In this document: positions 9,001 through 12,000 of the stretch, one piece after another | Layout of the letters: each line of letters starts with the position of its first letter | Position numbering within the stretch: position 1 is the stretch's first letter | IMG/VR virus record: IMGVR_UViG_2690316344_000004 | Reading direction: 5' to 3' (one strand) | Length of the DNA stretch: 19,134 bases | Origin: a virus | Lineage: Duplodnaviria; Heunggongvirae; Uroviricota; Caudoviricetes | Program-made: the position numbers

Positions 9001-12000
9001 AGCGGACTAGAAGGTTAGCTTGCGTCGGACTTGGCGTATTTAAAGAAGTGCTGGTGGTGACTGGTTGTTGTGTTCCATTTCTACAGAACAAAATCACAGA
9101 AACTATACCCAATAGTTGTATTGAATCACTGACGAGACAGCCTCATATTTATCAGGACTGGTGTACGTCCAATACAGGAGGTTGTGGTGCTGGTTCTCAA
9201 ATGTGCGCTGGCTATTGCTGCTGTAATGGCAATTTATTGCCTTGCTGTTGTTCTTATGGATCGCCTTTCTGATTGATTTCATATTGGCGAGGTGACGGGA
9301 GTTAAGTAGAATGGCTGCGGGTGCTTGAGGCTATCTGTCTCAGGCATGAACACCAAAGGCAGATAGAGAAAAGCCCCAGTTAACATTACGCGTCCTGCAA
9401 GACGCTTAACATTAATCTGAGGCCATATCTATGCTCTACACACGTAGGTTAGCCTCTTACGTGCCGAAAGGCAAGGAGAAGCAGGCTATGAAGCAGCAAA
9501 AGGCGATGCTAATCGCCCTGATCGTCATCTGTTTAACCGTCATTGTGACGGCACTGGTAACGAGGAAAGACCTCTGCGAGGTACGAATCCGAACCGGCCA
9601 GACGGAGGTCGCTGTCTTCACAGCTTACGAACCTGAGGAGTAAGAGACCAGGCGAGGGAGAAATCCCTCGCCACCTCTGATGAGTCAGGCATCCTCAACG
9701 CACCCGCACTTAACCCGCTTCGGCGGGTTTTGTTTTTTCCTGGCATTCTGGTTTACAATTCGCACGTCAGCCTGAACAACTGGCACCTGCTGCGCCAGCA
9801 GAGAAAACAGATGGCGCACGATACCAAATTTTACAATTCGGATAACTCTGCCGCCCCTGCCAGTAGGCACGGGCGGCGTTCTCATGCATTCAAATCTGAC
9901 TGGTATCAGCACGATCCCTGCACTGAAGAACAGGCCGAATGGCTGATTCATAACTACCGCAGACGTGGGTATGAGTTTAAGAAAGCCCTTAGCCTCGACT
10001 ACCGTCACTGGATAATCTACGTCAGGCTCCTTTATTCCGAACGCCCGCCGCGTCCGTCCCGCACATTCCAGCAACGCATCTGGAGGTAACGTGCGGGTAT
10101 TACTTCGACCTGTTCTGGTACCGGAACTCGGGCTGGTGATCGTTAAGCCGGGCCGTGAATCCATGCCGGTATTCCACAATACCCGGGTACTGGTGGAGCC
10201 GGAACCGAAAAGCATGCGTAATCTGCCGTCCGGGGTTGTTCCTGCCGTTCGCCAGCCGCTAGTGGAAGACAAAACATTGCTGCCGTTTTTCAGTAACGCA
10301 CGGGTGATTCGTGCTGCTGGTGCATTGTCTGACTGGCTGTTGCGCCATATTAAATCCTGCCAGTGGCCACACGGCGATTATCATCACAGCGAAACCGTCA
10401 TTCACCGTTATGGTACCGGCGCGATGGTGTTGTGCTGGCACTGTGACAACCAGCTGCGCGACCAGACATCCGAATCACTCGGGCAGCTTGCTCAACAAAA
10501 TCTGACAGCCTGGATGATTGACGTCATCGGTCACGCAATAAGCGGTACGCAGGAGCGTGAATTATCTCTGGCTGAATTATCCTGGTGGGCGGTCCGCAAT
10601 CAGGTGGCGGACGCGCTACCGGAAGCGGTATTACGTCGTTCGCTGGGGTTGCGTGCGGAAAAAATCCGCTCAATGTACCGTGAAAGCGACATCGTGCCGG
10701 GAGAGCAGACCGCCACCAGCATACTGAAACAGCGCACAAAAAATCTTGCGCCGCTGCCTCATGCCCACCAGCAACAGAACCCGCCACAGGAAAAGACGGT
10801 GGTCAGCATTGCTGTTGATCCGGAGTCTCCGGAATCTTTAATGAAGCGACCTAAACGTCGCCGTTGGGTAAATGAGAAATATACGCGCTGGGTAAAGACA
10901 CAGCCGTGTGCGTGTTGTGGTAAGCCAGCCGACGATCCCCATCACCTGATTGGTCATGGTCAGGGCGGAATAGGGACAAAAGCCCACGATATTTTCACGC
11001 TACCGTTGTGCCGGGAGCATCACAACGAACTTCATGCTGATCCGCTGGCATTTGAAGAAAAGCATGGTTCCCAGATTGATTTAATTTTTCGTTTTCTTGA
11101 TCGCGCCTTTGCAACCGGCGTGCTCGGGTAAAAGAGGTTACTGATGCGTATAGAGTTTGTTTTGCCTTACCCGCCGACGGTGAACACCTACTGGCGTCGT
11201 CGTGGCAGCACATATTTTGTGTCAAAAGCCGGTGAGCGTTATCGCCGGGATGTGGCACTTATTGTTCGCCAGCAGCGGCTGAAATTAAACCTGTCCGGAA
11301 GGCTGGCGATAAAGATTATTGCAGAGCCACCGGATAAGCGCCGCCGCGACCTGGACAATATCCTGAAGGCACCACTGGATGCGCTTACGCATGCCGGACT
11401 ACTTATAGACGACGAGCAGTTTGATGAAATCAATATTGTGCGCGGTCAGCTCGTTTCTGGTGGGCGGCTGGGCGTGAAGATTTACAAAATTGAAAGTGAG
11501 TGAGCATAAATATGATATACCCGGAAATTACAGGCAAAAGCGGTGAGCATTTACGCCTGAAAACGCTGGAAAGTGTCTGGATCCAGGGGAAACTGCGTAT
11601 GTGGGGGCGTTGGTCGTATATTGGCGACGGTAAGACGGGAAATATGTTCAACCAATTACTGACCTCTAAAAAGCTGACAAAAACGGCAATTAACGAGGCG
11701 CTCCGGAGGATGAAAAAAGCGGGTCTGGACAAACCTGAACTTGAGGCTTTTTTGCGGGATATGATCAACGGCAATCAAAAAAGCTGGCTGGCACATTGTA
11801 CCGATTCAGAGGCGTTAATAATCGACAGGGTTATTGGTGAAGTACTGGCAGGTTATCCCGGGCTGCTCAATGTTCTGAGTCAGCGTTATGTGGGGCGGGG
11901 GATGACTAAGCGCAAAATGGCTGAACTGCTGAATGATGCACATCCGGAATGGAGTTTAAGAACCTGTGAAAGACGCATTGAGCATTGGCTAAAGGTGGCA

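Follow-up and report, generated by a model that had tools for sequence, protein, structure and literature searches.

A YdfU-type protein with a predicted zinc-finger HNH domain in the nin region of a lambdoid prophage

The DNA analyzed in this work (the window, a stretch of 19,134 nucleotides from the Caudoviricetes record IMGVR_UViG_2690316344_000004) corresponds to a lambdoid prophage and carries, just upstream of the resolvase gene rusA, a gene of the ydfU type (DUF968 family), whose product is predicted to combine a C-terminal zinc-finger HNH domain with an N-terminal module that holds a second putative zinc site. A first-pass annotation, made from the sequence alone, had described this product as a DUF968-like protein with an HNH-like Cys/His cluster at its C-terminus, and had considered a nuclease role plausible. 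The features of the gene and its product are the following:

10091-11131, plus strand: ydfU-type gene of the DUF968 family, 346 residues, GTG start, TGA end, stop included
10082-10093, plus strand: Shine-Dalgarno, stop and start block, with GGAGG (10082-10086), TAA (10087-10089) and the GTG
10826-11128, plus strand: C-terminal HNH (His-Me finger) domain, residues 246-346, predicted by AlphaFold2, Foldseek and profile searches
10907-11035, plus strand: Cys/His cluster, residues 273-315, defined by residue numbering and conservation
Within 10907-11035, plus strand: predicted zinc ligands C273, C276, C307 and H310, and predicted catalytic set H284, H285, D300, H311 and H315
10091-10738, plus strand: N-terminal domain, residues 1 to ~216, modelled by AlphaFold2 as a small beta unit, helices, a beta-hairpin plus helix, and a helical bundle
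10358-10444, plus strand: putative second zinc site, with C90, H98, C115 and C118, conserved Q91, W116 and D119, and the consensus CQ..YCH..LCWHHDN
10763-10807, plus strand: Gln/Pro-rich linker, residues 225-239

The ydfU-type gene and its family

Both the list of open reading frames (ORFs) and the translation reveal an intact, full-length ORF at 10091-11131, the coordinates that had been annotated, with 346 residues and a GTG start. The TAA codon of an upstream ORF of 92 residues, as read from the sequence, is located one base 5′ of the ydfU GTG, and the same stop-then-start arrangement is found in the RefSeq annotation of Escherichia coli E9, a layout that suggests translational coupling between ydfU and the upstream ORF. 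The ratio of non-synonymous to synonymous substitution rates (dN/dS) with respect to ydfU of E. coli K-12 is 0.11 for the whole gene (0.12 for the N-terminal domain, 0.12 for the middle segment and 0.07 for the C-terminal domain), and 0.13 with respect to the E. coli E9 copy. Judged by these ratios, the ydfU-type gene is kept by purifying selection.

The protein shows 86% identity, over its full length, to YdfU of the Qin cryptic prophage of E. coli K-12 (b1560). It matches the Pfam DUF968 model (PF06147) with an expectation value (E) of 1.1e-75 and 253.8 bits, above the gathering cut-off of 27.8, which bears out the DUF968 label and makes it a member of the DUF968/YdfU family. This match spans residues 157-343 (window 10559-11119) and covers the whole 171-position model. 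The Pfam model is out of step with the predicted domains, as it starts in the helices of the N-terminal module, crosses the linker and ends with the HNH domain, and the conserved residues 1-156, including the second zinc site, lie outside every Pfam model. In PHROGs, the protein gives a full-length match to phrog_96, 'HNH endonuclease' (E=3e-169). None of the NCBIfam models matches the protein, and PADLOC returned no match for YdfU, the small upstream ORF or RusA, a result that led us to reject a known defence system.

The segment formed by hokD, the small ORF, the DUF968 gene, rusA and the DUF1133 gene is present in 816 of 5,426 complete E. coli genomes, at ~93-94% DNA identity and with at least 80% query coverage. 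Moreover, tblastn searches detected full-length homologues in 175 phage records, which include Stx2 phages, ST64B, phages of Klebsiella, Yersinia and Vibrio, and P1. The K-12 and window proteins have in common the two-domain architecture, the hokD ... ydfU ... Q neighbourhood and residue H310, whereas the two proteins differ by a three-residue deletion after residue 77, and the Qin prophage carries ydfT (Q) directly after ydfU, without rusA, and rem instead of the upstream ORF of 92 residues. In all, the copy found in the window is typical of its family. The conservation counts given below (out of 29) are clusters of alignment A1, which comprises 29 full-length homologue representatives with 26-82% identity.

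The C-terminal domain and its relatives

The cluster of Cys and His residues at the C-terminus, which had been placed in the last ~60 residues of the protein, is indeed present, but it lies 32-74 residues from the C-terminal end, that is, within the last ~75. Similarly, the string CxCC reported there exists as such, but it would work as a CxxC motif, since the middle cysteine (C275) is retained in just 8 of the 29 homologues. With regard to the predicted zinc ligands, C273 is found in 29/29, C276 in 24/29 and C307 in 25/29 homologues, position 310 is either Cys or His in 24/29, and the pattern CCC[C/H] (C273-x2-C276, C307-x2-[C/H]310) is whole in 24/29. For the predicted catalytic residues, D300 is present in 29/29, H285 in 26/29, and H284, H311 and H315 in 25/29 each, with a whole HHDHH set in 25/29.

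Both residue sets have been lost on separate occasions. In five of the 29 homologues, at least two Cys ligands each are gone while HHDHH is complete, and judging from such sequences the C-terminal zinc site is dispensable in some lineages. The homologues in question are clusters P0157, P0177, P0200, P0210 and P0235 of alignment A1, where sequences such as CTHE or CTRE are found at the site and the catalytic residues are all retained. Conversely, the histidines are gone in 4/29 homologues, all of which retain CCC[C/H]. This independent loss of the two sets of residues is as expected for a structural zinc site separate from the catalytic site, and the cluster would be made of two overlapping sites, one structural for zinc and one catalytic.

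The layout of these residues is CxxC(G) ... HH ... D ... LCxx[C/H]Hxxx H, which corresponds to the classical zinc-finger HNH layout, as exemplified by H102/H103 ... N118 ... H127 ... H131 of colicin E9. As expected for the zinc-finger subclass of HNH proteins, four Cys/His ligands would bracket a beta-beta-alpha unit, a pattern read from the sequences of 24 of the 29 homologues. The residues typical of His-Me fingers are also in place, with H284/H285 closing strand 1, H311 and H315 on the helix, and D300 at the position of the HNH 'N'.

AlphaFold2 modelling of the full-length protein from the 29-sequence alignment gave a mean predicted local distance difference test (pLDDT) score of 86 and a predicted template modelling (pTM) score of 0.55. 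In this model, a strand at 282-285 ending in the HH pair is followed by a second strand (303-306), by a helix (308-316) carrying H311 and H315, and then by two more helices, with pLDDT values of 85-98 in the beta-beta-alpha block. A model of the isolated domain (246-346) showed identical secondary-structure elements, with a pLDDT of 91.4 and a pTM of 0.78. The beta-hairpin and alpha-helix of the His-Me metal finger are both found in the predicted structure, and the beta-beta-alpha-metal topology, whose absence the first-pass annotation had named as an argument against its own proposal, is obtained for the C-terminus at pLDDT above 90.

Structural searches against the PDB with Foldseek returned only HNH nucleases among the top 13 matches of the full-length model and the top 21 of the domain model, the best one being McrA (6ghc_B; E=0.013, probability 0.95, template modelling score on the query, TMq, of 0.47), together with IscB, Cas5-HNH, Cap5 and Gme HNH. 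Neither 3g27 nor 3PLW was listed by Foldseek for either of the two models. In BFVD, the best matches were stand-alone phage DUF968 proteins of ~110 residues (E=2e-7, template modelling score on the target, TMt, of 0.76), followed by models of an HNH homing endonuclease, a 'RecA-dependent nuclease' (Ref) and endonuclease VII. At the sequence level, the profile of the C-terminal domain had YbcO (3g27, E=0.014 by hmmsearch) as its sole match in the PDB, where searches with the single sequence or with the full-length profile gave nothing meaningful. Conserved ligands, a predicted beta-beta-alpha unit, top Foldseek matches that are all HNH proteins and profile links to YbcO and to Gp16 (hhalign 84% and 95%, respectively) all agree with the HNH or zinc-finger-like core that had been suspected from the sequence, and we consider the assignment of fold and active site as HNH very probable. 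This HNH assignment of DUF968/YdfU is correct but already known, as it was published in 2017 (PMC5714182).

The closest characterised relative of this domain is the C-terminal half of Gp16 from the Staphylococcus phage PhiNM1 (E=3e-8 in the hhalign comparison), a protein of the HNHc_6 type described as an early, RecA-interacting HNH nickase with nicking activity in vitro (Nucleic Acids Research 2026; PMC12817073). Gp16 inhibits host growth and its nickase is RecA-dependent; its zinc ligands C148, C181 and H184 are essential for growth inhibition, mutants in the zinc ligands being inactive, whereas H157, H185 and H189 are residues of the nuclease centre, and the binding of RecA requires both termini of the protein (PMC12817073). 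The motif CxxCGKP ... H ... D ... LCREHHNExH is common to both domains nearly letter for letter, and every residue mutated in Gp16 (C145, C148, H157, C181, H184, H185 and H189) has a counterpart here. Both Gp16 and ydfU are early phage genes located near ssb, replication and rusA genes. On the other hand, the N-terminal domain of Gp16 is NinB/Orf-like, whereas that of YdfU is unlike NinB/YbcN and has a zinc site of its own. Pfam searches with 21 relatives of the C-terminal domain showed matches to HNHc_6 (PF16784) in 15 of them (E<=0.01) and to RecA_dep_nuc (PF16786, the family of P1 Ref) in five. For the window protein, the HNHc_6 score is 21.8 bits with the full sequence (E=1.5e-4) and 24.5 bits with the isolated domain, which does not reach the gathering cut-off of 26.6, and no RecA_dep_nuc match was found in the Pfam search.

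A second relative is YbcO from the DLP12 prophage (DUF1364, PDB 3g27), with which the hhalign match extends over residues 271-345, although a direct comparison of the two sequences shows little similarity (32% over 44 residues). YbcO is also encoded directly upstream of rusA and near Q, but it is a single domain of 96 residues lacking an N-terminal module, in contrast to the 346 residues and two domains of YdfU-type proteins, and it is biochemically uncharacterised. No Pfam match to DUF1364 (PF07102) was detected for the window protein, which is not a DUF1364/YbcO member but a relation at the profile level only. DUF968 and DUF1364 form together group 7 of the His-Me fingers, in a description that names YdfU and gives the RusA/Q neighbourhood (PMC5714182), whereas the prediction of YbcO as a nuclease dates from 2016, in a paper where FFAS connected it with Ref (PMC4999995). 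The HNH core of P1 Ref itself (PF16786, PDB 3PLW) is related to the YdfU domain at the profile level, with the difference that the N-terminus of Ref is disordered and basic, and that of YdfU a folded zinc domain. Another protein to be considered is Rap (NinG, PF05766) of phage lambda, a branch-specific endonuclease of the nin region encoded two genes (ninH and ninI) upstream of Q, which belongs to group 24 of the His-Me fingers (PMC5714182). Membership of the window protein in the NinG/Rap family was rejected, as hhalign gave 5.7% over 18 columns (CxxCG ... D..H only) and no Pfam NinG match appeared at E<=0.1. The two have only the superfamily and the place in the nin region in common, which makes lambda Rap an analogue of ydfU in position and probably in function.

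A further relative is PdcB from phage P1, a full-length homologue that is 26% identical between residues 32 and 345 and also has the N-terminal zinc site. In PdcB and in three representative clusters, residues H284, H285, H311 and H315 are replaced (for example, by TPYIVR and CQSCQRDIER), while both zinc sites and the N-terminal domain are retained; the degenerate clusters of the alignment are P0218, P0236, P0266 and P0201. The pdcB gene occupies positions 314-1345 of the P1 locus (L012), as an ORF between doc and lpa. Directly downstream of it lies lpa, the activator of the P1 late promoter, in parallel to the location of ydfU upstream of Q. No function is known for PdcB, which is non-essential (PMC10695390). 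The loss of the catalytic histidines in these members implies that at least part of the family works without catalysis.

The N-terminal module and the genomic neighbourhood

The N-terminal domain was modelled with pLDDT values mostly of 80-96, and it showed no structural match in the PDB or BFVD and no Pfam or NCBIfam match; in PHROGs, its match is just phrog_11007, of 'unknown function'. The linker that follows has pLDDT values below 50 and a variable length among homologues, and appears mostly as gaps in alignment A1. Within the domain, residues 90-118 form a further Cys/His cluster, absent from the first-pass annotation, which is probably a second zinc site, as suggested by its conservation. 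Both C90 and C115 are present in 29/29 homologues, position 98 is occupied by C (17), H (11) or N (1), and position 118 by H (22) or C (7). The resulting ligand patterns (positions 90, 98, 115 and 118) are CCCH in 17 homologues, CHCC in six, CHCH in five and CNCC in one, which means four Cys/His ligands in 28/29 and a Cys3His site in 23/29. Whenever position 98 is Cys, position 118 is His, the C/H swap at the former being compensated at the latter. In the model, C115 and C118 are found at the junction between a hairpin (102-115) and a helix (116-122), with a geometry analogous to that of C307/H310. This Cys/His region would be the structural zinc site of a targeting domain.

Two possible relationships of the domain were considered, and neither is retained. 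DUF968 proteins are said to have an Orf-like N-terminus (PMC4118853), and an Orf/NinB- or YbcN-like domain has been reported for Gram-positive DUF968/HNHc_6 proteins. The hhalign comparison of the family profile gave 0.06% with lambda Orf/NinB and 0.07% with YbcN, both below 0.1%, and 1PC6 is absent from the Foldseek matches. Given this lack of NinB/YbcN similarity, the statement in PMC4118853 does not apply to the YdfU branch. In an hhalign comparison of sub-alignments, the N-terminal hairpin and helix came out in register with the C-terminal HNH unit, but without significance (probability below 1%, P of ~0.07-0.1), and an internal duplication is not claimed here. Sequence databases also contain in-frame fusions of the N-terminal domain of YdfU with domains of the tail tip, tail fibre, capsid or portal (P0145, P0195, P0197, P0255, P0178 and P0125), which were not accepted as real architectures and are best read as deletion chimeras of decayed prophages or as assembly artefacts.

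The features that surround the gene in the window are the following:

9712-9739, plus strand: GC-rich terminator-like hairpin followed by a T-run, which separates hokD from the ydfU operon segment, detected by a consensus scan
9811-10089, plus strand: ORF of 92 residues (phrog_1212, E=7e-35) that abuts ydfU, annotated as hypothetical in E. coli E9
11144-11503, plus strand: rusA, Holliday-junction resolvase (Pfam RusA, E=5e-16)
11500-12066, plus strand: Q-type late-gene antiterminator (DUF1133, E=4e-105; Phage_antitermQ, E=6e-8), whose true start may be an ATG a few codons in

The order of genes in the window is that of a lambdoid prophage: Cro/YdaS-like, YdaT-like, O-like, DnaC-like, DUF1627, DUF977, NUDIX, HAD and sok/hokD, then the terminator-like hairpin, the 92-residue ORF, ydfU, rusA, the DUF1133/Q-type antiterminator and a DNA methyltransferase, and finally three tRNAs, the small RNA (sRNA) STnc100, two nanS-p-like esterase ORFs, a holin and a lysozyme. 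The rusA gene thus adjoins ydfU, as had been annotated. Searches covering the ORFs of 90 residues or more in the window detected no homologue of NinB/Orf or NinG/Rap. The 92-residue ORF was discarded as a conserved partner or inhibitor of YdfU, being unrelated to K-12 Rem and given that the 5′ neighbour varies by genus; in other genera, its place is taken by an antirepressor, RusA or MT-A70 methylase gene. Strong Rho-dependent termination has been reported upstream of ydfU in K-12 (PMC9160355), and the hairpin at 9712-9739, a candidate terminator, is consistent with it.

Full-length homologues with 39-44% identity are located in the nin region of prophages from Yersinia, Hafnia and a metagenome (L008/L009), where the visible downstream gene is always a Q antiterminator, although of differing families. 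A Q gene lies directly 3′ of the DUF968 gene in the Yersinia loci (L004-L006) and in L008-L009, whereas rusA stands between ydfU and Q in the window and in E. coli; the Hafnia contig (L007) stops just 3′ of the DUF968 gene and leaves the downstream gene outside. As for RusA, it is encoded downstream in the window and in E. coli, directly upstream in Hafnia and one gene upstream in Yersinia, and there is none in L008. The constant feature of these loci is the position beside the late-gene activator, while RusA is often nearby but changes place from one locus to another.

Other elements of the window deserve a brief mention. A toxin module made up of hokD and the antisense RNA sok (Rfam RF01794, 114.7 bits) is found at 9319-9643, just 5′ of the ydfU block. 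A match to the sRNA DicF (Rfam RF00039, 76.7 bits) on the minus strand at 1752-1803 fits the organisation of a Qin/Rac-like immunity region. The early region also contains genes for a NUDIX hydrolase (7617-8255) and a HAD phosphatase (8279-8923), which look like moron cargo; among the PADLOC models, the candidate defence model PDC-S07 gave a match to the NUDIX protein (E=6.6e-10). Between the methyltransferase and the nanS-p-like genes (13738-14254), a cluster of tRNAs (Met-CAT, Arg-TCG and Arg-TCT) is followed by STnc100 (139 bits), a layout that is that of Stx-converting phages; no stx gene appeared among the ORFs scanned. Finally, the ORFs at 14477-15754 and 15691-17544 overlap by 64 nucleotides and open each with DUF1737 and a SASA sialate-esterase domain of the NanS-p type, with DUF6645 added in the second one; this pair may represent a tandem duplication or a rearranged copy.

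Possible roles of YdfU-type proteins

The analysis documents homology, a conserved motif, a predicted fold, synteny and purifying selection, and from these we infer a catalytic activity, a substrate and a biological role for this gene. Tentatively, and with slightly less than even confidence, we propose that it encodes a two-module, two-zinc HNH nickase or nuclease of the delayed-early nin region, which would act on branched or RecA-bound DNA together with RusA. The C-terminal ~100 residues would constitute a zinc-finger-type HNH domain, joined through a disordered linker to the N-terminal module. A structural zinc would be held by C273, C276, C307 and H310, whereas H285, which closes the first strand, would act as the general base, and H284 together with H311 and H315, the latter two on the helix, would bind the catalytic divalent metal, with D300 replacing the HNH asparagine. 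The N-terminal ~215 residues, with their Cys3His zinc site, would most likely provide the recognition of a DNA structure or of a partner. The most likely activity would be the metal-dependent nicking of DNA in early lytic growth, with branched intermediates of recombination and replication as probable targets and RusA working alongside. Such a protein would occupy the slot of lambda Rap (NinG), in parallel to the HNH nickases PhiNM1 Gp16 and P1 Ref. Catalysis by a YdfU-type protein is considered likely.

Several observations weigh against this proposal. YdfU is still catalogued as uncharacterised (PMC11551758), and no published nuclease assay for YdfU or DUF968 was found in the literature. The score of the window protein stays under the HNHc_6 gathering value (21.8-24.5 versus 26.6 bits), and not a single PDB structure was matched at E<=1e-3 by either the full-length or the domain model in Foldseek. 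Four of the 29 clusters, as well as P1 PdcB, lack the catalytic histidines and retain both zinc sites. In Gp16, the mutation H157A, which corresponds to H285 here, left growth inhibition unrelieved (PMC12817073). Moreover, the NinB-like domain of Gp16 and the N-terminal domain found here are not related, which implies that the choice of partner or substrate is not transferable from Gp16, and the link with RusA is not obligatory, as L008 has no RusA.

The same HNH chemistry could be directed at the host. Early in induction, a RecA-assisted nuclease would nick the RecA-bound or supercoiled host chromosome, block host replication and tip the cell into lytic growth, in the manner of Gp16 and of P1 Ref after DNA damage. 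Gp16, the closest characterised relative of the C-terminal domain, depends on RecA for nicking and inhibits the growth of its host (PMC12817073), and the RecA_dep_nuc matches in five of the 21 relatives, the 'RecA-dependent nuclease' model among the BFVD fold matches and the YbcO-Ref link obtained by FFAS (PMC4999995) all point in this direction, as does the very strong Rho terminator that precedes ydfU in K-12, which has been interpreted as silencing toxic prophage genes (PMC9160355). However, the binding of Gp16 to RecA needs both of its termini and the N-terminal domain found here is unrelated to that of Gp16, the window protein has no RecA_dep_nuc match of its own, and the YdfU gene persists stably in over 800 complete E. 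coli genomes. All in all, we regard an attack on the host chromosome as somewhat unlikely. A broader picture, which we find unlikely when taken as a whole, would present the N-terminal domain as an undescribed zinc-binding fold that aims the HNH nickase at a DNA structure or a host partner (RecA filaments, D-loops or junctions). On this view, YdfU would correspond in enterobacteria to the RecA-dependent phage nickases Ref and Gp16 and would work upstream of RusA, and the PdcB branch would be a catalytically dead derivative with targeting or binding functions only.

The degenerate members of the family also raise the possibility of a non-catalytic DNA-binding or regulatory zinc protein, whose zinc sites and HNH scaffold would bind DNA or a partner, for instance to modulate the activation of late genes. 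PdcB and four of the 29 clusters have dispensed with H284, H285, H311 and H315 but kept both zinc sites and the whole N-terminal domain, and the gene stands beside the late-gene activator in lambdoid prophages (Q, with rusA in between in the window) as well as in P1 (lpa). In Gp16, mutants in the zinc ligands abolish the phenotype, whereas those in the catalytic site merely weaken it (PMC12817073). Against such a role, the window protein and 25 of the 29 clusters keep HHDHH under purifying selection, and five clusters have lost zinc ligands but none of the catalytic residues, a loss with the catalytic set intact which argues that catalysis would be the selected property in the main branch. The Pfam search, in addition, gave no helix-turn-helix or other regulator signature, and a purely binding function seems quite unlikely for the window protein.

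A role in packaging, as an HNH protein that would stimulate cos cleavage by the terminase in the way of HK97 gp74, is very improbable. According to work cited in PMC12817073, phage terminases commonly have HNH proteins as accessory factors, but the gene analyzed here belongs with Q to the early nin region and is not beside the terminase genes, its family includes catalytically degenerate members, and a related E. coli prophage with the ydfU module has a separate HNH gene directly upstream of the small terminase subunit. Finally, a chance Cys/His-rich tail in a decaying, functionless prophage gene is barely credible, and was refuted by the conservation and selection data: many such prophage genes are cryptic, and the databases hold truncated and chimeric copies, but this ORF is intact, dN/dS is ~0.1 in all three segments, and the motif persists in homologues with as little as 26% identity and in phages that are functional (Stx2 phages, ST64B, and those of Klebsiella, Yersinia and Vibrio).

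With respect to the published assignment, the analysis adds the N-terminal zinc domain, the catalytically dead branch of P1, the shared location beside the late-gene activator in lambdoid prophages and P1, and the experimental handle offered by Gp16. YdfU-type genes are among the commonest uncharacterised genes of E. coli, although the practical value of the finding is modest. In any case, the residue-level model (two zinc sites, HH...D...H...H and a natural dead branch), together with the precedent of Gp16, makes a biochemical test straightforward. If a nickase directed by RecA or by DNA junctions is indeed encoded, this would explain why the gene travels with RusA next to Q, where it would stand in for lambda Rap, and could have consequences for how Shiga-toxin phages are induced and recombine.

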